Below are positions 17,019 to 63,538 of a stretch of DNA of 64,000 nucleotides, piece after piece; positions within the stretch are counted from its first letter, which is position 1; each line of letters starts with the position of its first letter. The notes under the pieces are model-generated. The model was not told where the DNA came from, searched no databases, and was given only the letters and a program-made list of their open reading frames with translations. The position numbers were made by a program, and so were the translations under genes. The stretch comes from Promethearchaeota archaeon (GTDB lineage Archaea; Asgardarchaeota; Lokiarchaeia; Sigyniarchaeales; SOKP01): contig RDOA01000004.1 in assembly GCA_011364925.1 (NCBI GenBank), positions 45,011-109,010 on the forward strand, in the 5' to 3' direction.

Positions 17019-17318
17019 ATGGTAGATGCAAAAAAAGACTTTCAAAAAATCCTAGGTTCTGTTCAAAAACCCGTTAAAGGTGAAGCTGGAAAAACAGGCA
17101 CTTGGAGTTCTAAAAAACCTATAATAGATCTAGAGAAATGCATTCCTGTAAAATCTGGGAAGCCAAGTTGCTTTAATTGTTGGTTGTATTGTCCAGAAGC
17201 AGTAGTAACAAGGACTATTCCTCCAAAAATAGATTTAGAATATTGTAAAGGATGTGGGATATGTCAGATGGAATGTCCTGTAAAAGCAATTTCTATGGAA
17301 GAGGTGAAAATTGAATGA
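17019..17318 (+). CDS. porD: 2-oxoacid:ferredoxin oxidoreductase delta subunit (2x[4Fe-4S])
   Basis: KTGTW, CWLYCPE, YCKGCGICQMECP. Confidence 0.9.
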   Translation: MVDAKKDFQKILGSVQKPVKGEAGKTGTWSSKKPIIDLEKCIPVKSGKPSCFNCWLYCPEAVVTRTIPPKIDLEYCKGCGICQMECPVKAISMEEVKIE

Positions 17319-18613
17319 CAATATCCGAGAAAAGCGAGAAAATTAGAGATTTAAAAACAAAAATCTTAACTGGAAACCACGCCGCAGCACATGCGTTAAG
17401 ACAAGCTAAAGTTGGAGTTATAGCTGCTTATCCAATAACTCCACAAAGCCCTGTTGTAGAAAAAATTGCAGAATTCATATCTAAGGGAAAATTAAACGCC
17501 CGATTTGTAAAAGTAGAGTCAGAACATTCTGCTCTTGCTGTATGTTGTGCGGCTTCTGCAACTGGGTCTAGAGTTGGGACTGCAACTTCGTCACATGGAT
17601 TGATGCTAATGTATGAAATGCTACCTTGGGCATCTGGAAATAGATTACCAATTATTATTAACTTAGCAACTCGAGCTACTGGTGCACCATGGTCCGTTTG
17701 GACAGATCATCAGGATTTTATAACAATTCGTGATGTGGGTTGGATTCAGATGTTTTGTATGGATAACCAAGAGATTTACGATACAAATTTACAAGCCTTT
17801 AAAATAGCAGAAGATCCACGGGTTTTTCTTCCAGCGATCGTTGCTTATGACGGCTATATTTTATCTCATACAATGATGCCAGTATCAATAGAGAAACAAG
17901 ATGAAGTTGACAATTTTCTACCTCCATTAGAACATCATTACAACCTTTCTGACATTTCAGTTGTAAAGGGGATAGATCCAGTTACTACACCTTATTTAAG
18001 AGATAGAAGTTCTGAAGGTATAGCTCCAGGGTACTTTGAGTATCGCTATGCAATGCAAAAAGCTCTTGAAAATTCAATTGAAATTATTATGAAAGTACAT
18101 GATGAATTTTCAGAAAAATTTGGGCGTTCCTATGGAAATGGTATTTATAAAACATATTTAACTGAAGATGCTGAGGTTATTATATTCGCAATGGGATCAG
18201 TCGCGTCACAAGCAAGGAATGTTATCGGTCAGCTTCGGAAAGAAGGAATGAAAGTCGGATTAGTAAGTTTAAAACTATTTAGACCTTTCCCTGCTTCACA
18301 GTTGCGAGCTTTATTAAAGGGTGTAAAACTAGTAGTTGTGTTTGATCGAGATATCGGATATGGTTATGAGGGCGTTCTATCGTACGAATTGAAGGCAGCT
18401 TTGTACGGTTTAAAAGAATCGCCTTTTATTAAAGGATTTATTGTGGGATTGGGTGGTAGAGATATAACCGATCAACATATAAAGAAAGGAATAACCAAAG
18501 CACTCAAAGAATCAGAAAAAGGTATTATTTCTCACGAAACTGATTTCATAGGTACACAATTGGAGTTGTTAAGTGAATATGATGAAAAAGAATATTTTAA
18601 AGGAGGCTTATGA
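17315..18613 (+). CDS. porA: 2-oxoacid:ferredoxin oxidoreductase alpha subunit
   Basis: AYPITPQ, VESEHSA, FRPFP, GLGGRD; ATGA overlap with porD. Confidence 0.93.
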   Translation: MTISEKSEKIRDLKTKILTGNHAAAHALRQAKVGVIAAYPITPQSPVVEKIAEFISKGKLNARFVKVESEHSALAVCCAASATGSRVGTATSSHGLMLMYEMLPWASGNRLPIIINLATRATGAPWSVWTDHQDFITIRDVGWIQMFCMDNQEIYDTNLQAFKIAEDPRVFLPAIVAYDGYILSHTMMPVSIEKQDEVDNFLPPLEHHYNLSDISVVKGIDPVTTPYLRDRSSEGIAPGYFEYRYAMQKALENSIEIIMKVHDEFSEKFGRSYGNGIYKTYLTEDAEVIIFAMGSVASQARNVIGQLRKEGMKVGLVSLKLFRPFPASQLRALLKGVKLVVVFDRDIGYGYEGVLSYELKAALYGLKESPFIKGFIVGLGGRDITDQHIKKGITKALKESEKGIISHETDFIGTQLELLSEYDEKEYFKGGL

Positions 18614-19515
18614 AAATGGTTAAAACGATGGATCTTCCCGAAGAAGAATATATTCTTCCTGGAACCAGAGCTTGTGCAGGATGTTCTATGGCGCTAATTT
18701 ACAGGATAGCCTTAAAAGCATTAGGTCCAAACACGATAATTACTGTTCCAGCATCGTGTTTAACTGTACTCCATGGAATGCAAGGATTTTGTACAACCAA
18801 AGTTTCGGTACTTCACACCCCTTTTGCCACTACAGGCGCATCAGCATCGGGTATCGTAGCGTCTCTTGAAGACAAGGGATTAGCAGATGAAATTAATGTC
18901 GTAGCGTTTGCAGGTGATGGAGGTACGGTTGATATTGGAATCCAAAGCTTAAGTGGAGCGGTTGAACGAGGTACAAATTTTATTTTTGCATGCTACGATA
19001 ATGAAGCTTATATGAATACAGGAGTTCAGAGGAGTGGAAGTACCCCGCCAGGAGCTTTTAGCACCACTACGCCAAATGGGAAAACGGGGTATAAGAAAAA
19101 TATGGCTAAAATTCTAGAAGCTCATGGTATACCATATGTAGCAACAGCAATATCCTCTTACCCTCTTGATTTATATCAGAAATTTAGAAACGCGGTAGAA
19201 ATTAAGGGTCCAAAGTACATCCACATTCTCGCTCCATGTCCTCCTGGTTGGGGGTATAATCCAAAAGACTCAATTGAAATCGGGAGACTAGCGGTTCAAA
19301 CTGGTTTTTGGCCTTTATACGAAGTTATCGAAGGAAAATTTATCTTATCAAAAGATAGTCAAAAATTTATAGATCCTGCTAAGCGAAAACCTATTACTGA
19401 TTATTTAAAAGCTCAAAAAAGGTTTAAGAGTATATCTGATAAAGAAATTAAGCAATATCAGAATTATATAGAAGCACAATGGAATGAAATTGAAAAAAGA
19501 ATTAAAAATGAATAG
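18610..19515 (+). CDS. porB: 2-oxoacid:ferredoxin oxidoreductase beta subunit
   Basis: ACAGC, GDGG, DNEAYMNTGVQRS, PCPPGW; ATGA overlap with porA. Confidence 0.93.
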   Translation: MKMVKTMDLPEEEYILPGTRACAGCSMALIYRIALKALGPNTIITVPASCLTVLHGMQGFCTTKVSVLHTPFATTGASASGIVASLEDKGLADEINVVAFAGDGGTVDIGIQSLSGAVERGTNFIFACYDNEAYMNTGVQRSGSTPPGAFSTTTPNGKTGYKKNMAKILEAHGIPYVATAISSYPLDLYQKFRNAVEIKGPKYIHILAPCPPGWGYNPKDSIEIGRLAVQTGFWPLYEVIEGKFILSKDSQKFIDPAKRKPITDYLKAQKRFKSISDKEIKQYQNYIEAQWNEIEKRIKNE

Positions 19516-19634
19516 CGTAAATAACTATTAATTCCTTCTTAAAATTCTTTAGGTACATTTATCTACTTCTAACAAATTAGTTAAGAGATAGAAAAGAATA
19601 TAAACTAATTAAAGTTAAAAATACTTGATTCTAT

Positions 19635-20420
19635 ATGCTAAAGACATATATTTTCGACGATGCTAATAAGAAATGGATTGAAGAGGATAAAAGCCTATTG
19701 TACCACGATCTCTGTGCAATTTTAGATGAAGAACATAACATTATTTATGTATGGAATGGACCAAAAAGTTCTCAAGAAAGGTTAAAAAGGGGATATGAAC
19801 AATTAGAAAAGTTAATGTCCACTTACCCTACAATCAATTTTCAATTATCTATATTAAAAAAAAAAATCCCAAAGCACATTCAGGATAAAATTGACTTAAT
19901 GTTAGGGGAAATTAACCAAAAGGAAGATAAAGAGTTTTATAAATTTAGCCGTTTTTCGACTTTAAGATTGTATTTAATTTTATTATTGATCTCAACAATT
20001 TTACCTTTTTTTTTGCTTTTAAACTTAACATCATCACTATCATGGTATAAAATTGGGATGAATTTTGAGATTGGAGCAGATGAGTATAATATATGGTTAA
20101 CAATATCCTCTATATTAACAATCATTATTCTAATCTCTTTCAGTATTATGATAATTATAGGTATAATTGAAATAGAGTACCAAGTTATAGTTTTATCCTC
20201 ATTAGGCACACTTGTTTGCATCGGTTTATCTATTTATTTTCAGCAGGGAATATTTTTGTTTCTGTTTCAAACGGGATATTCCTCTTCAATTTATTACATT
20301 AGCCAAAAAGATATCATTGAGTTTTTAATTATAGTTTCTTTAGGAATATTTGTTTTTGAAATTCCAAATATTTTAAAACTTATTTCATTCTTAAGAATTT
20401 ATAGGAATTTCGTTTTTTAA
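19635..20420 (+). CDS. gelsolin-like domain fused to four predicted transmembrane helices
   Basis: SLLYHDLCAILDEEHNIIYVWNGPKSSQERLKRG resembles the gelsolin repeat core; four long hydrophobic segments in the C-terminal half. Confidence 0.62.
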   Translation: MLKTYIFDDANKKWIEEDKSLLYHDLCAILDEEHNIIYVWNGPKSSQERLKRGYEQLEKLMSTYPTINFQLSILKKKIPKHIQDKIDLMLGEINQKEDKEFYKFSRFSTLRLYLILLLISTILPFFLLLNLTSSLSWYKIGMNFEIGADEYNIWLTISSILTIIILISFSIMIIIGIIEIEYQVIVLSSLGTLVCIGLSIYFQQGIFLFLFQTGYSSSIYYISQKDIIEFLIIVSLGIFVFEIPNILKLISFLRIYRNFVF

Positions 20421-20472
20421 AATAAAATTCAAGACTATATTAAACACAGAGAATATATTTTAAGATATCAAC

Positions 20473-21354
20473 ATGGCAGAAGCAGCAGAAATTCTTCCAG
20501 AGCTGGAAAAAGAAGATTTGAGAATTTTAATGGCAATTGAAATAGGAATGAAAAGATCCGAATATGTAACAGTAAATAATATCAAATTCTACTCTAGATA
20601 TCCAATGGAAGAAACTTTATTTCGCCTTAAAAGGGTTCATAAGTGGAATTTAACAGTTCGAGACTCTTCTAAAAACGAAATTGCCTATACACTTAATTCA
20701 ATTGGATATGATGTGCTAGGACTTCATACATTGGTCGAAAAAAATGTAATAAGTCAATTAGGACCATTAATTGGTAAAGGAAAAGAATCAGATGTTTACG
20801 GATGCATGGATGAAAATAATAATATATACGCTTTGAAAATCTATAGGATAGGTAGGACCAGTTTTAAAAATATTAGAAAGCTTAGAAGTTTTCAAGGAGA
20901 AAGGAAACACATTTCTTGGTTATACGTTAATAGGCTAGCCGCTAAAAAAGAATTTAAAGCTTTAGGTAAAATATACAAACTTAAATTAAATACCCCCAAA
21001 CCCATTGGTTTTAATAGACATTTGATTGTAATGTCTTATTTGAGAGGAAAAGAATTAGCTTATATCCAACATTTAAGAAATCCAAGTAAAATTTTTAATA
21101 GGATCATTAAACAGATGAAAATTATTTATCAGAAAGCGAACATGATTCATGGTGATCTTGGAGAATTTAATATTATCTTAGATCATAAAGAAAAGATATT
21201 AATTATTGATTGGCTTCAATGGATTCCTTCAGATCATCCAAATGCTAACTCAATTTTGGAAAGAGATGTCGAGAATGTATGCAATTTCTTTAAAAAAAAA
21301 TACAATGTGGAAAGTAACCCTACCAAAATTATTCAATCATTTTATAAAAAATAA
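20473..21354 (+). CDS. rio2: RIO2-type serine/threonine kinase
   Basis: N-terminal wHTH (LMAIEIGM), GKGKESDVY, GRTSF, HGDLGEFN, IIDW. Confidence 0.93.
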   Translation: MAEAAEILPELEKEDLRILMAIEIGMKRSEYVTVNNIKFYSRYPMEETLFRLKRVHKWNLTVRDSSKNEIAYTLNSIGYDVLGLHTLVEKNVISQLGPLIGKGKESDVYGCMDENNNIYALKIYRIGRTSFKNIRKLRSFQGERKHISWLYVNRLAAKKEFKALGKIYKLKLNTPKPIGFNRHLIVMSYLRGKELAYIQHLRNPSKIFNRIIKQMKIIYQKANMIHGDLGEFNIILDHKEKILIIDWLQWIPSDHPNANSILERDVENVCNFFKKKYNVESNPTKIIQSFYKK

Positions 21355-21362
21355 TTAAAAAA

Positions 21363-21962
21363 TTAGTCTTTTTTTAAGTTTCCTTCTATGAACACATCCT
21401 CTAAATCTTCTAAAATAATGGTTTTAAGATTGATTGTATGGGAATCAAGAAAATCAGTCATTTCTTCTAATTCTAATTGTTTTTTAAGAATTGATAATTT
21501 CATAATTGTGCTCTTTTTACCTACTCTAAACAGCTCTTTTAATCCTTTATTTAACACTTGTAAATTCTGTAATGATGTGAAAGACAAAATAAGATTGAAT
21601 ACTCCCTCTCGAAATGGTAGATTTTCAATGTCTCCTAAAATTAGGCTAATTTTACCAAAGTAATTCCTCTTTTTTAATTTTTTAACAAACTCCTGAAGCA
21701 TTTTCCATGAGATATCTAAACCTATATACTGTACATCTTTGTGAAAATTTTCATCGTGTAAATTAGAAATAAATTCAAGTAGAAGGCCTGTACCGCACCC
21801 TGCATCTAGTATAGTGATATGCTTAAAATGAATATTTGATAGTTGAAAATTAAACTTCTCATTTTGGATCCTCCTATATCTCTCATCGTAAAAGCTAGAG
21901 GTTGAATTATATTTCTCAATAATTATTTTTTTCTTGTCTGAATCTTCATTTAAAGGTTTCAA
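21363..21962 (-). CDS. class I SAM-dependent methyltransferase
   Basis: ILDAGCGTG, GLDIS, GDIENLPF. Confidence 0.85.
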   Translation of the reverse strand: MKPLNEDSDKKKIIIEKYNSTSSFYDERYRRIQNEKFNFQLSNIHFKHITILDAGCGTGLLLEFISNLHDENFHKDVQYIGLDISWKMLQEFVKKLKKRNYFGKISLILGDIENLPFREGVFNLILSFTSLQNLQVLNKGLKELFRVGKKSTIMKLSILKKQLELEEMTDFLDSHTINLKTIILEDLEDVFIEGNLKKD

Positions 21963-22056
21963 TATTCTTAGTAAGGTTTTAATTCGAAAAATGTTTTTCT
22001 TTAAATTATCTTTTCAATAATTATAATATTAATGTTTTTTTGATAAAGGTTATAAT

Positions 22057-22311
22057 ATGTCCAATCAAAACAATAGAAATAAAAACCCATTACATATTTT
22101 GCAAGCCGCACAAAACAGTGAAATATTGCTTAGATTAAAGGATGGAACGGAATATAGAGGATTATTAAAAGAGATTGACGCTTATATGAATATGATTTTG
22201 GAAAATGCCACAGAAATAATGGATGGTAGTCCTGTAGCAAAATATAATGAAATCTTCATTCGTGGTAATAATTTACTATTTATAAAGCCAGATGCTTCTC
22301 AAATTACCTAA
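22057..22311 (+). CDS. Sm-like (LSm) RNA-binding protein
   Basis: Sm1 (LKDG..YRG.L...DAYMN..L) and Sm2 (IFIRGNN) motifs. Confidence 0.95.
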   Translation: MSNQNNRNKNPLHILQAAQNSEILLRLKDGTEYRGLLKEIDAYMNMILENATEIMDGSPVAKYNEIFIRGNNLLFIKPDASQIT

Positions 22312-22342
22312 ATGAGAACTGTTATTGAAAGCAAGTAACTCA

Positions 22343-22768
22343 ATGAGTTTAAATCTCATTCCAATTGTTGGTTATGGCACTTTCATAACTAAAAACCTCT
22401 GGATTGATAAAGCTAATATTGAAGTTTGCCTTGTTAAAAATTTTACAAGGATTTACCCTAAAGGATCATGGTTTCCATACGCTTTGAGATCAAATGGTTC
22501 TTTCAAAGCACTAAAATTCGATGTTAACAAACAAGAACTAAGAACCTTGGATTTAATTGAGGGAGTTAATGAAGGACTATTTGAAAGAGTATCTACCGAA
22601 ATATTTCTCAAAAATAATGTAAAATCATCTGCTTTTATTTATATACCCACTCCTAATACAATCAGATCAGAAAACTTAAGTTTGGAATTAGATACAACAG
22701 ATCGATGGTTGAAAGAAATTCAAAAGAGTCCTAAAGCCTTAAAAAGATTTCCTGAATTAATTACATAG
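22343..22768 (+). CDS. gamma-glutamylcyclotransferase (AIG2/YtfP-like) family protein
   Basis: GYGT near N-terminus, LDLIEG...FER, AFIY; likely ATG22343. Confidence 0.75.
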   Translation: MSLNLIPIVGYGTFITKNLWIDKANIEVCLVKNFTRIYPKGSWFPYALRSNGSFKALKFDVNKQELRTLDLIEGVNEGLFERVSTEIFLKNNVKSSAFIYIPTPNTIRSENLSLELDTTDRWLKEIQKSPKALKRFPELIT

Positions 22769-23656
22769 TTAGTCAACTATTTTTGCTTCGACCAAGTCTT
22801 TTTTTATTATAGCGTATGATGCTGGATTCGTCGCCCTATAATTATCGGAAGAAAATATTGATAGTAATCTCTTGTTGAAAAACCATCTGTAACCTTCTGG
22901 AAATACTTCATGCGATCTGATTAAATAATTTAAATTATAATCTTTCATAAAGTCATCAAAAACATCTTCACCAAAGAATTTTATTCCAGGTCCTCGAAAA
23001 CTTTCAGAAAAGCCTTTTAATCCTGATTTAGGGTCATTCCACATAATTTGCATAAGAATCTTCGCTATAGATTTGAAAGTTAGAGCAATATCTTTTGGTT
23101 TCAAACCCTTTAATTTTCTCATAAATTCGATGTCCTCTGGAATACCACCATGTAAGCATAGAATAGAATTATTCACCAGAGCACAGAAAGGAAGTGCTAG
23201 ATATAAAGATAAAATTTCATCAAATTTCATTTGACCATAAAATTTTGACATAAATACAGAATAAAAACCATAATATTGGTTCATTTCTAATGTCTCGTGA
23301 TTACCCTTTAATATATAGTATTTATCAGGATATCGAATTTTTAACGCTAGTACCATTATTAAGCATTCTAATTGATAGGGACCTCTATCGACAATATCAC
23401 CTAAAAATATTACAAATCTGGGATTGGTTTGCTCAATAATCTCAACTAATTTTTGTAAACACCTCAAGTTTCCGTGAATATCTCCAATAACATATACCTC
23501 TCTCTCAATTTCCTTAACATTTAATTCCAATAGCAGTGGTTCTTCTTTCAATATATTCACAGCCTGATGGATAATTTGTAAAATACTGTGATATTCTAAT
23601 TTAGATATTTCATCTGGGTTAGCAATAAGGTCTTTTAAAAACGCTTTATCTATCAA
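22769..23656 (-). CDS. PPP-family Ser/Thr protein phosphatase (PP1/PP2A-like)
   Basis: GDIHG, GDIVDRG, GNHE, HGG, WNDP, RSHE, IFSSDNY. Confidence 0.93.
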   Translation of the reverse strand: MIDKAFLKDLIANPDEISKLEYHSILQIIHQAVNILKEEPLLLELNVKEIEREVYVIGDIHGNLRCLQKLVEIIEQTNPRFVIFLGDIVDRGPYQLECLIMVLALKIRYPDKYYILKGNHETLEMNQYYGFYSVFMSKFYGQMKFDEILSLYLALPFCALVNNSILCLHGGIPEDIEFMRKLKGLKPKDIALTFKSIAKILMQIMWNDPKSGLKGFSESFRGPGIKFFGEDVFDDFMKDYNLNYLIRSHEVFPEGYRWFFNKRLLSIFSSDNYRATNPASYAIIKKDLVEAKIVD

Positions 23657-61648: not shown

Positions 61649-63538
61649 TTATCTCATCAGATAATATTTTTTAGCAAGATTATCTATTAATTTTTCATCT
61701 ACATCAAAAAGTTTAAGAAAACAGATATCAATTATCCTTTTCGGGTTACTTTCATTTTGTATTCTGGAATAAATATCAGGATTTAATTCTTTTAACTTAT
61801 TTAATTTGATTATGTTTACAGAAACTATATTTTGAGTCAAATTTAGAGTAATATCTCGTATTAAATTAATCAATTCTAACTCGTATGGAGATCGAAATAG
61901 CGATGTGTTAGGGATTGGTATTTCCTCCTCTAATTTAGTCTTACTCCTTTTTATTGTAATATTTTTTGCTTTAAATAAAAAATTCACAATTTTAGAATTT
62001 AGATAAGCGAGAAGAAATAAGTAGTCAAAATTGTTTTTCCCTTCGTTTAACCATAAAAAATATGTATCAGAAGTAGCATAATACGAATCGTTCGTATATC
62101 CAAACACATTTGAGTTGGAAATGTAACTAAAAAAAATTTTAGCTCCTCTCTCATAGTAAGGTTCGAGGTTAACTAATTTTCTTTTATGTTTAATGTTATA
62201 ATGAGTAATCAGGCTTCCTCTTCGTGGAAAATAAATGTCATTGATATTTTCTTTTGCATTTTTAAGTATCTTTACAAGCTCTTTTTTATATTGGTTTAAA
62301 TATGCTGTTAAATTAGGGTATTTCTGGTTTAAATATTTATTTCGTTCCATTGCCTTTTCAGTGCGTAACTCATTTTTACTTAAAAAGATTAGGTACCCTA
62401 TAAAGTCACTCTTGTCAAAAGAGAAAGGCTTTATCGCTCTACTCTTATATATCTTTTTTAACCTTTTCTTTTCCTCATTATTTAATTTTACGAAAGTATT
62501 ATTAATTTTGATATACATCTCTGTTTCGACAATTTTGATGTTCTCATTCTCCTTTAATATGAAAATTTCGTCCTTTATCAGAATTAATCCATTTCGAATG
62601 ATAAAAAAATCATTTAAATAGCTTACTTTCCCATTAAATCTACAATATTTTTCAATTGTATCAACATAATGTTTAACTTCTAAAGGATACAGTAAAATCC
62701 ATCCATCATTTTTAGGCAAATCTTTATTTGATATAGCAGAATTGTACTTCAATAAATGTGTTGACTTCTGGTTATTTAGAATATCCATAAAAGTTTGTTC
62801 TAAGAAATTTCCCTCGCAATGTTTATTACTAAGATTAAACTGAATTACTTCGATTTTTTTATCGAAATTTTTGTTCTTTTCATTTTCATATTTCTTTTGC
62901 AGGATAAAAATGCAGTTATGCTGACCTTTAGCATCTTGGAAAATAGTAATTTTTGATAGATCAATGTATTGTAACATAAAGCAATCGTTCACTATGTGAG
63001 GTTTTAGATATTTTATCCCTGTTTTTTTTGATTTAGTTAACCAATAGTTAGTTGTGATAAAAGATAATAATCCTCCTGGTCGTAATTTCTCTATTCCTAA
63101 ATGAATGAAAAAATAGAACAAGTCCATATTCCCAGCAAAATATTTTTTGCATATTGGATACATTGCTACCAACTCTTGAAAAATTGGCGCGTTATAATTT
63201 TGACCTAAGTAAGGTGGGTTTCCTATAACAATATCGAATTTTTCATTAGTGTTAGATCCTAAGAAGTTCCCAAATACTAACTTTACTTTCGGGTATTTCT
63301 CTAAAAGTGGAGTTTTCAGAGATTGATCTACTTCATATCCAGTTATATTTGTAAACCCTTCCCTTAATAAATACTTGAGAAAAATACCTTTTCCTACACA
63401 AGGTTCGAGAACCTTAATTTCTTCAATGTCTAATTCATTATGTATCGACAAATACCTATTCTTAATGTTTCTAACCATAAAATCTGCGACATAATGGGGA
63501 GTAAAAATTTGACTCAACTGATTTCTATTTAGATCCAT
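61649..63538 (-). CDS. N6-adenine DNA methyltransferase (gamma class, Eco57I-like)
   Basis: QIFTP, LEPCVGKG.F, GNPPY, DLF..F, TaqI-C-like LAYLNS. Confidence 0.87.
   Translation of the reverse strand: MDLNRNQLSQIFTPHYVADFMVRNIKNRYLSIHNELDIEEIKVLEPCVGKGIFLKYLLREGFTNITGYEVDQSLKTPLLEKYPKVKLVFGNFLGSNTNEKFDIVIGNPPYLGQNYNAPIFQELVAMYPICKKYFAGNMDLFYFFIHLGIEKLRPGGLLSFITTNYWLTKSKKTGIKYLKPHIVNDCFMLQYIDLSKITIFQDAKGQHNCIFILQKKYENEKNKNFDKKIEVIQFNLSNKHCEGNFLEQTFMDILNNQKSTHLLKYNSAISNKDLPKNDGWILLYPLEVKHYVDTIEKYCRFNGKVSYLNDFFIIRNGLILIKDEIFILKENENIKIVETEMYIKINNTFVKLNNEEKKRLKKIYKSRAIKPFSFDKSDFIGYLIFLSKNELRTEKAMERNKYLNQKYPNLTAYLNQYKKELVKILKNAKENINDIYFPRRGSLITHYNIKHKRKLVNLEPYYERGAKIFFSYISNSNVFGYTNDSYYATSDTYFLWLNEGKNNFDYLFLLAYLNSKIVNFLFKAKNITIKRSKTKLEEEIPIPNTSLFRSPYELELINLIRDITLNLTQNIVSVNIIKLNKLKELNPDIYSRIQNESNPKRIIDICFLKLFDVDEKLIDNLAKKYYLMR

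Follow-up and report, generated by a model that had tools for sequence, protein, structure and literature searches.

To our knowledge, all Asgard actin regulators characterised to date are soluble. The eukaryotic gelsolins and villins consist of three to six soluble repeats with calcium sites, and carry an isoleucine in G1 and G4 fifteen residues after the tryptophan of the core motif (W+15, this tryptophan being W+0). Among the Asgard proteins, Thorarchaeota (Thor) ProGel (7C2F, chains B and D; Akil et al. 2020, PMC7444086) is soluble, measures ~92 aa, and is formed by a single ~90-aa gelsolin domain that lacks calcium sites, while the 2DGel and the 1DGelX or B35_GelX-type gelsolins (PMC7444086; bioRxiv 10.1101/2025.11.30.690169) are also soluble, with domain 1 of 2DGel retaining Asp-Glu calcium ligands and a hydrophobic ridge. 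In cultured Lokiarchaeia, actin-filled protrusions rearrange and cells crawl (bioRxiv 10.1101/2025.11.30.690169). Here we analyzed a 64,000-nucleotide stretch of DNA from a Promethearchaeota archaeon (hereafter the window; contig RDOA01000004.1, positions 45,011 to 109,010, of assembly GCA_011364925.1) and identified a gene for a protein in which a gelsolin domain is part of a membrane architecture that we have not found described; we named it GelTM for its gelsolin-fold head and four-helix membrane module. GelTM is a concrete candidate for the missing link between actin and the membrane in Asgard archaea, or for an interface between lipids and the cytoskeleton. As an actin-membrane link it is unproven, because positive charges stand in this protein in place of the hydrophobic ridge with which soluble gelsolins engage actin.

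To describe the head of GelTM, a structural model of the whole protein was generated with AlphaFold2 from a 32-sequence alignment (mean predicted local distance difference test score (pLDDT) 86.9; 82-91 for the head). In this model the head comprises strands at residues 2-8, 13-16, 26-31, 36-41, and 70-73, a long helix at residues 47-63, and a second helix at residues 80-98. A Foldseek search of the PDB returned Thor ProGel first (7c2f_B; E 5e-5, template-modelling score 0.70 on the target), and all matches with E<0.02 were gelsolin-family domains, from gelsolin, adseverin, CapG, and villin. A VIA structural scan similarly aligned 85 of 88 residues with ProGel 7c2f_D (Z 10.2, root-mean-square deviation 2.6 Å), with adseverin at Z 9.6. 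An earlier note on this DNA had recognised a gelsolin core in the N-terminal region; the stretch that it quoted corresponds to residues 20-53 and includes D25, D31, W40-x-G42, 'PKSS', and the long helix, and the structural comparisons bear this assignment out. By sequence, the top Pfam match was Gelsolin, which scored under the cut-off (15.6 bits for the whole protein and 17.8 bits, E 0.003, for residues 1-100, versus 21), while phmmer against PDB sequences matched villin with E 2.6e-6, four of the six villin repeats aligning to the 'IIYVWNG' core. When a head profile of 14 sequences from three families of the order was run against the PDB, it matched villin (1.2e-17), gelsolin (1.3e-11), Thor ProGel (2.3e-8, 37 bits), Loki 2DGel (3.8e-6), and also CapG, a match that on these sequence scores is far above chance. 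The 32-sequence alignment shows no variation at D31, W40, or G42, the superfamily as a whole none at D25 or G42, and the head contains the D...W.G core, the 'DWG' motif of gelsolins that is replaced by WP in cofilins (PMC7444086). As judged from the model, residues 1-95 of GelTM are a gelsolin domain that belongs, like ProGel, to the single-domain type.

Of the known systems, ProGel is both the best structural match and the best single-domain sequence match of the head, to which it is also similar in being one domain without calcium sites. The two share the W.G motif, a glycine at W+13, and Y-P at W+24/25, but the ProGel orthologues have hydrophobic residues at W+7, W+8, and W+11 where GelTM has K/Q, E/K, and K/R, and the second long helix, the four-helix membrane bundle, and the C-terminal helix of GelTM go beyond ProGel. 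The 2DGel and 1DGelX-type gelsolins belong to the same domain family and occur in the same genomes as GelTM, and the 'W.GPKS' helix start is common to GelTM and domain 1 of Thor 2DGel3. The eukaryotic gelsolin/villin repeats (PF00626) share the fold and the core motifs of the head, with every villin repeat aligning to 'IIYVWNG' over the phmmer and head-profile searches. None of the gelsolin-family chains found in the PDB searches has membrane helices, and we found no published description of a gelsolin domain joined to four transmembrane segments, nor of the corresponding locus tags, in agreement with the earlier note, which had not recognised the architecture as described.

Downstream of the head, hydropathy analysis revealed four hydrophobic segments (approximately residues 111-133, 154-178, 183-201, and 226-243), as had been noted previously, and AlphaFold2 modelled these as helices at residues 107-136, 148-179, 182-202, and 224-260 with pLDDT values mostly >90. 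The only low-confidence stretch of the model, residues 95-100 (pLDDT <50), falls in the linker between head and bundle, in which F104, like R111 just inside the first membrane helix, is nearly invariant. Across 140 near-full-length orthologues of the close clade, residues 96-110 contain on average 3.4 K+R versus 2.2 D+E, consistent with the basic linker that had been proposed, and the C-terminal tail (residues 244-261) contains 3.3 K+R and 0.3 D+E, compared with 0.9 K+R in each of outer loops A and B. Because of this charge distribution, the lack of a signal peptide, and the presence of a folded head of 105 residues before helix 1, we infer from the positive-inside rule that the head and both ends of the protein are cytoplasmic, which is where the earlier note had placed the head. 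The model describes GelTM as an integral membrane protein with four helices running up-down-up-down and with loops A and B forming a small sheet on the outer face.

In the close clade the mean pairwise identity is 0.62 for outer loop B (residues 202-225), 0.58 for the C-terminal tail, and 0.52 for the head, and W137, W154, E179, F207, F209, F211, N245, and Y256 are invariant. This order is reversed across the wider superfamily, where the identity of the head is 0.30 and that of the membrane module 0.19; here E179 is not kept, and only D25, G42, the nearly invariant Y201, and a loose Y-x3-G-x-L-F-x-F pattern remain. As outer loop B is the most conserved region in the close clade, the membrane bundle would seem to be a functional part of the protein rather than a passive anchor. 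The earlier description of the module as a membrane anchor undersells it. The bundle could not be assigned to a described family: Pfam at E<=10 gave only Gelsolin and a weak DUF6005 match (E 0.02-0.16), which we treated as noise, NCBIfam gave nothing, and Foldseek against the PDB gave nothing specific. VIA against 48,161 chains matched the bundle to generic or designed four-helix bundles only, the best rows reaching Z 12-15, values that are common for helical bundles, and the ESM Atlas returned only a cluster of Promethearchaeota hypothetical proteins. No known four-pass family, such as MARVEL, tetraspanin, or claudin/PMP22, was among the matches to the module in Pfam, NCBIfam, Foldseek-PDB, or VIA.

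We next compared the long helix of the head with those of soluble gelsolins, numbering its positions from the invariant tryptophan (W40 = W+0) and counting residues in the 140 orthologues. The key actin contact of gelsolin G1, Ile103, we take to be W+15, and the type-2 calcium ligand Glu97 presumably corresponds to W+9, a register that fits the HMMER alignment of villin repeat 1 in the head profile search. One face of the helix carries a hydrophobic stripe, at W+10 (L/F), W+13 (G/A), W+14 (Y), W+17, W+20, W+21, and W+24, which is presumably buried. The stripe beside it is polar and mostly basic, with lysine at W+4 in 131 sequences, K/Q at W+7 (64 and 62), E/K/D at W+8, K/R at W+9 (75 and 60), K/R at W+11 (77 and 36), K/R at W+12 (102 and 15), variable polar residues at W+15, and K/E at W+18. 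Domains that bind in the actin cleft insert hydrophobic side chains exposed along the N-terminal half of this helix; on the face of GelTM predicted to correspond, the 140 orthologues have predominantly the residues just listed. By comparison, the host genome encodes five single-domain soluble gelsolins in which W+7 is V/I, W+11 is F, and W+12 is I, and the host 2DGel has V at W+7 in both domains and D-E at W+8/+9 in domain 1. In three ProGel orthologues of another family, W+7 is V/L, W+8 is F, and W+11 is L, and domain 1 of Thor 2DGel3, known from its actin complex (7C2H), has V, F, L, and A at W+7, W+11, W+12, and W+15, respectively. Overall, W+7 and W+11 are hydrophobic in six of the eight soluble gelsolin-domain proteins of the host, while a control that lacks the ridge, a 200-aa soluble gelsolin-domain frame on contig 47, has E at both positions. 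At the type-2 Ca2+ site, the aspartate (D25) is invariant, but the glutamate at W+9 is replaced by lysine or arginine in the numbers given above, and by this comparison the Ca2+ ligand is lost from GelTM. Aligned in this way, GelTM has a conserved patch of positive charge where soluble Asgard gelsolins conserve a hydrophobic ridge, which argues against canonical cleft binding and indicates that the helix surface is still under constraint, but for charge. The patch is a feature of the close clade, more distant relatives having mixed charges at these positions, and it is compatible with a head that could bind electrostatically to acidic actin filaments or anionic lipids.

A word-indexed search identified 142 homologues at E<=1e-3, nearly all of 259-263 aa and 40-95% identical, every one of them annotated as hypothetical and derived from Lokiarchaeial or Promethearchaeotal metagenome bins. 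In a profile search of 1.84 billion cluster representatives, 105 matches were obtained, and each match of 235-400 aa spans both head and bundle; candidates for the membrane module alone, or on another head, were rejected, as the matches confined to the transmembrane part in this full-library search were short fragments that probably stem from short contigs. When 400 genomes of the phylum were surveyed in six frames, full-length GelTM was found in 111 of 134 genomes of its own family, 13 of 14 of a second family, and 3 of 4 of a third family of the same order, the third-family members being 239-252 aa proteins that span profile positions 2-253 when read as open reading frames. Beyond the order, the 400 genomes yielded only short soluble ProGel-like genes, matched via the head alone, with a single exception, on an 8-kb contig from another family of the phylum (L042 1826-2962 (-), which is G058 contig 98). 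As surveyed, the GelTM superfamily is confined to one Asgard order, and within it the combination of a gelsolin domain with four transmembrane segments is kept. The exceptional 378-aa frame has an N-terminally truncated head of the close-clade type and pieces of the membrane module repeated three times, and may reflect mis-binning, misassembly, or duplication. A quick maximum-likelihood tree grouped the window GelTM and the second-family proteins in a clade A (Shimodaira-Hasegawa-like approximate likelihood ratio test (SH-aLRT) support 95), with the third family as its sister, while paralogues present in some own-family genomes form a clade B. Some clade-B members (P0199, P0229, P0206) end, after the last membrane helix, in Lys/Pro/Thr-rich tandem repeats of about ten copies of a 10-residue unit.

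Exact look-ups identified clade-A orthologues in three named organisms (Table 1), and because these include Candidatus Lokiarchaeum ossiferum B35 and Promethearchaeum syntrophicum MK-D1, the role of GelTM is directly testable. The L. ossiferum protein, UYP46179.1, was modelled with the same architecture (pLDDT 86.8). Approximately 17 second-family representatives of clade A, all three named organisms included, carry an additional cytoplasmic tail with the conserved motif R-[LK]-x-S-[KR]-P-[TS]-I-L-R-D-K followed by V-[EK]-[LM]-[KQ]-E-[IV] (for example 'KPTILRDK', then 'VELKEI'); the window clade is without this tail, and the window GelTM ends before the tail position. In the model of the L. 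ossiferum tail, a short helix at residues 258-265 precedes a disordered stretch (pLDDT ~50), an arrangement usual for WH2 motifs, in which a short amphipathic helix leads into an extended L-[KR]-x-[VIT]-type sequence within a disordered region. In a short, post hoc comparison, the tail core T-I-L-R-D resembles the 'TLLKDV' found between the two domains of the host 2DGel, which is kept in 29 of 30 2DGel orthologues and contains the LKDV that has been named as the Asgard WH2 motif (bioRxiv 10.1101/2025.11.30.690169). We treat the possibility that the tail motif of the cultured orthologues is WH2-like as a lead only. The five gelsolin-homology proteins listed for L. ossiferum do not include UYP46179.1, and the co-immunoprecipitation performed in that organism under-represents membrane proteins (bioRxiv 10.1101/2025.11.30.690169). 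We also sought UYP46179.1 in the published proteome and co-immunoprecipitation tables, where interpolation leads to approximately GNAMCCOK_02485 or 02486, of which 02486 is in the proteome table; as this mapping of Prokka identifiers is unconfirmed, the entry was set aside.

The neighbourhoods of the sister lineages point to lipid synthesis. In clade B, a cytidine diphosphate (CDP)-alcohol phosphatidyltransferase gene lies directly downstream of the GelTM homologue on the same strand at 3 of 3 loci, separated from it by 11-33 nt, and in the third family such a gene is found within 0.5-4 kb at 3 of 3 loci (L039-L041). In L. ossiferum, a CDP-alcohol phosphatidyltransferase adjoins a 92-aa gelsolin-only gene (L046). 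The best NCBIfam model for the transferase is archaetidylinositol phosphate synthase (E 1.5e-36, 126 bits, under the cut-off of 180). The nearest CDP-alcohol transferase on the host contig is ~41 kb from GelTM and outside the window. Gene order thus appears to tie the GelTM superfamily, but not the window gene, to inositol-lipid synthesis. The third-family loci also contain large gelsolin-domain proteins (422 and 799 aa) nearby, and an E2 ubiquitin-conjugating enzyme (Pfam UQ_con, E 7e-15) lies near the GelTM homologue (L039 6119-6619 and 6861-8129; L041 243-2642).

We propose, with slightly less than even confidence, that GelTM is a docking module resident in the membrane, its basic gelsolin head binding, in a non-canonical manner, actin filaments, an actin-associated partner, or anionic lipids. 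The membrane module would keep the gelsolin-fold head lying flat on the membrane's inner face, with a flexible basic linker of ~10 residues tying the head to the four-helix bundle. The head would bind its partner electrostatically via the Lys/Arg patch, and likely candidates are Lokiactin filaments, through their acidic surface, a partner associated with actin, or lipid head groups of anionic (inositol-type) character. The bundle may couple something outside the cell, or in the bilayer, to the head inside, and in the cultured relatives the direct contact with actin that is missing from the head might come from the WH2-like tail. We regard as possible, but doubtful, the further-reaching reading that GelTM is the first archaeal transmembrane actin coupler, in which the outer loop and the head would be joined via the rigid bundle and Lokiactin would be fastened by charge; filaments would then be attached to the membrane or the surface of the cell, one such place being the protrusions of Lokiarchaeia, with the WH2-like tail as an addition in the cultured relatives. 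Several points weigh against a docking module. The neighbouring genes (oxidoreductase, Rio2, methyltransferase, LSm) represent housekeeping synteny that gives no functional hint. The actin-facing side of W+7 and W+11 was assigned from helical periodicity and homology to gelsolin G1, not from coordinates, and the binding of ProGel to actin is weak and lies one helical turn off the G1 position (PMC7444086); binding modes therefore vary, and the shift by one turn fits the hydrophobic cluster of ProGel at W+7/+8/+11. GelTM is also absent from 4 of 4 genomes of one genus of its own family (89-100% complete), all four of which have 2DGel, and is therefore dispensable. If the head does not bind actin, the family would show that the gelsolin fold had, as in Sec23, taken on a different task already before eukaryotes.

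The suggestion that the protein might tether or cap actin, made in the earlier note, needs as written a working actin-binding surface, and the long-helix ridge consists of conserved Lys, Arg, and Gln; the fold and topology hold, the canonical binding surface appears to be missing, and an actin role is unproven, leaving that suggestion partly supported. In its strict form it would make GelTM a canonical membrane-tethered actin binder whose head enters the subdomain 1/3 cleft of actin, as do G1, 2DGel domain 1, and ProGel, and caps, nucleates, or tethers monomers or filaments at the membrane. This would suit the finding that the closest structure is ProGel, which was solved with actin, the D..W.G core, 'GPKS' helix cap, and Y-P after the helix that are common to ProGel and 2DGel domain 1, and the cytoplasmic location of the head in an organism whose genome has Lokiactin-type actins. 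We nevertheless judge it quite unlikely, as W+7, W+8, W+11, and W+12 are K/Q, E/K, K/R, and K/R in the 140 orthologues while W+7 and W+11 are hydrophobic in most of the soluble host proteins and in the ProGel orthologues, W+15 is variable and polar, and the best eukaryotic sequence matches are gelsolin/villin domains 3 and 6, which lie outside the cleft. Should actin not be the ligand, the basic head might instead read or organise anionic inositol-type phospholipids of the inner leaflet, or act as the partner of a lipid synthase. The clade-B and third-family loci that adjoin the archaetidylinositol-phosphate-synthase-like transferase, and a basic patch on a head tethered ~10 residues from the bilayer, favour such a role, and there are precedents, as eukaryotic gelsolin is regulated by phosphatidylinositol 4,5-bisphosphate and the effect of Odin profilin on actin is reversed by phosphatidylinositol phosphate lipids. 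However, the window clade is not beside a lipid gene, only the close clade has the basic patch, distant clade-A members carrying mixed charges there, and the adjacency belongs to a paralogous clade and is hence indirect, so that we hold a lipid-linked role to be unlikely for the window protein. The working part could also be the bundle, serving as a receptor for a ligand outside, an oligomeric channel or transporter, or an attachment to the S-layer or cell surface, in which case the gelsolin fold would be regulatory or oligomerising and actin would not be involved. In the close clade outer loop B and the C-terminal tail are indeed more conserved than the head, the polar residues E179, Q204, Q212, E242, and N245, which lie in the membrane or next to it, vary little or not at all, and the gelsolin-like domain of Sec23 illustrates a fold serving other ends. 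Superfamily-wide, however, the head is the better conserved part and most of the clade-specific polar residues are not kept, and the matches of the bundle are confined to generic four-helix bundles, none of them a channel or transporter family; we give this explanation a small chance of being correct.

Table 1. Positions of GelTM, its predicted parts, its neighbours, and related loci. Positions refer to the window unless a locus is named.
Feature	Position	Strand	Basis or remarks
Whole GelTM gene	19635..20420	+	Open reading frame, 261 aa + stop, ATG start
Predicted cytoplasmic gelsolin-fold domain, aa 1-95	19635..19919	+	AlphaFold2, Foldseek, VIA, head profile
W40-x-G42 'PKSS' motif and long helix, aa 40-63	19752..19823	+	K44, Q47, R49, K51, R52 on the face that is hydrophobic in soluble gelsolins
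Predicted flexible basic linker and juxtamembrane stretch, aa 96-106	19920..19952	+	Conserved 'KFSRF'; K+R > D+E
Predicted membrane helix 1, aa 107-136	19953..20042	+	Hydropathy; AlphaFold2 pLDDT 93-95
Predicted outer loop A with beta-hairpin, aa 137-147	20043..20075	+	Strands 138-140, 143-147; W137 invariant; mean K+R 0.9
Predicted membrane helix 2, aa 148-179	20076..20171	+	Starts near invariant W154, ends in E179
Predicted membrane helix 3, aa 182-202	20178..20240	+	Y201 nearly invariant superfamily-wide
Predicted outer loop B, aa 203-223, 'QQGIFLFLFQ'	20241..20303	+	Strand 219-223 pairs with loop A; F207, F209, F211 invariant
Predicted membrane helix 4 leading into amphipathic basic C-terminal helix, aa 224-260	20304..20414	+	'FEIPN' at membrane exit; N245, Y256 invariant
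Possible archaeal TATA-like box AATATAAA	19597..19604	+	~34 nt before the GelTM ATG; read from sequence
2-oxoacid:ferredoxin oxidoreductase beta subunit	18610-19515	+	Upstream neighbour of GelTM
Rio2-type kinase	20473-21354	+	Downstream neighbour of GelTM
Clade-A orthologue, Candidatus Lokiarchaeum ossiferum B35	L035 5514-6365	-	UYP46179.1 / NEF87_002464, 283 aa; CP104013.1 at ~2.92 Mb
Clade-A orthologue, Promethearchaeum syntrophicum MK-D1	L037 5424-6284	-	QEE14692.1 / DSAG12_00505, 286 aa
Clade-A orthologue, Ca. Harpocratesius repetitus	L036 5297-6142	-	MCF2139422.1, 268 aa
Clade-B locus with adjoining CDP-alcohol phosphatidyltransferase	L043 4580-6011		
Clade-B locus with adjoining CDP-alcohol phosphatidyltransferase	L044 5039-6496		
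Clade-B locus with adjoining CDP-alcohol phosphatidyltransferase	L045 3824-5313		

The ATG start of the GelTM gene is called correctly, because M1 and L2 are nearly invariant among the orthologues of the 32-sequence alignment. The gene is separated from its neighbours by spacers of 119 nt upstream and of 52 nt, AT-rich, before Rio2, and a T-run is present at its end. The putative TATA-like box, AATATAAA, lies in an AT-rich spacer, and we consider its assignment weak; box, T-run, and spacers are weak hints of a separate GelTM transcript. The G+C content of the window is 27-34%. GelTM lies in a block of genes at 17019-23656 that encodes the delta, alpha, and beta subunits of the 2-oxoacid:ferredoxin oxidoreductase (POR), GelTM, Rio2, a class I methyltransferase (-), LSm, a GGACT-like protein, and a metallophosphatase (-). 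The same block is retained in other genomes in which the identity of GelTM is 41-48%, the GGACT-like gene being present in some only; it is rearranged in the second family of the order and therefore looks like housekeeping synteny. Genomes that share the POR-GelTM-Rio2 block also have a PAS histidine kinase upstream and an MmeI-type methylase downstream.

The host genome (3.9 Mb in 112 contigs, 100% complete by marker genes) contains five actin-family genes, Lokiactin-type actins included, and eight other gelsolin-domain genes; a Lokiactin gene of the host lies on contig 16 at 85284-86396. The clade-B profile matches in the host genome only GelTM and a soluble 121-aa gelsolin and reveals no clade-B copy and no second membrane gelsolin; a 279-aa frame on contig 90, considered as a candidate, did not match the family profile. 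The 121-aa protein, a single gelsolin domain encoded on contig 91 (L050 1354-1719 (+)), adjoins the gene for a 345-aa protein (L050 1758-2795 (-)) that by eye has an apparent N-terminal longin-like region and a small Rab/Arf-like GTPase. The last ~60 residues of the host 2DGel (residues 279-338) recur as stand-alone frames of 62-75 aa, for example on contig 38 of the host (62886-63065 (-) and 17503-17952 (-)) and in many relatives, and in most of the order's genomes the same piece also forms the C-terminal end of several further proteins. From this distribution, the C-terminal piece of 2DGel looks like a mobile C-terminal module.

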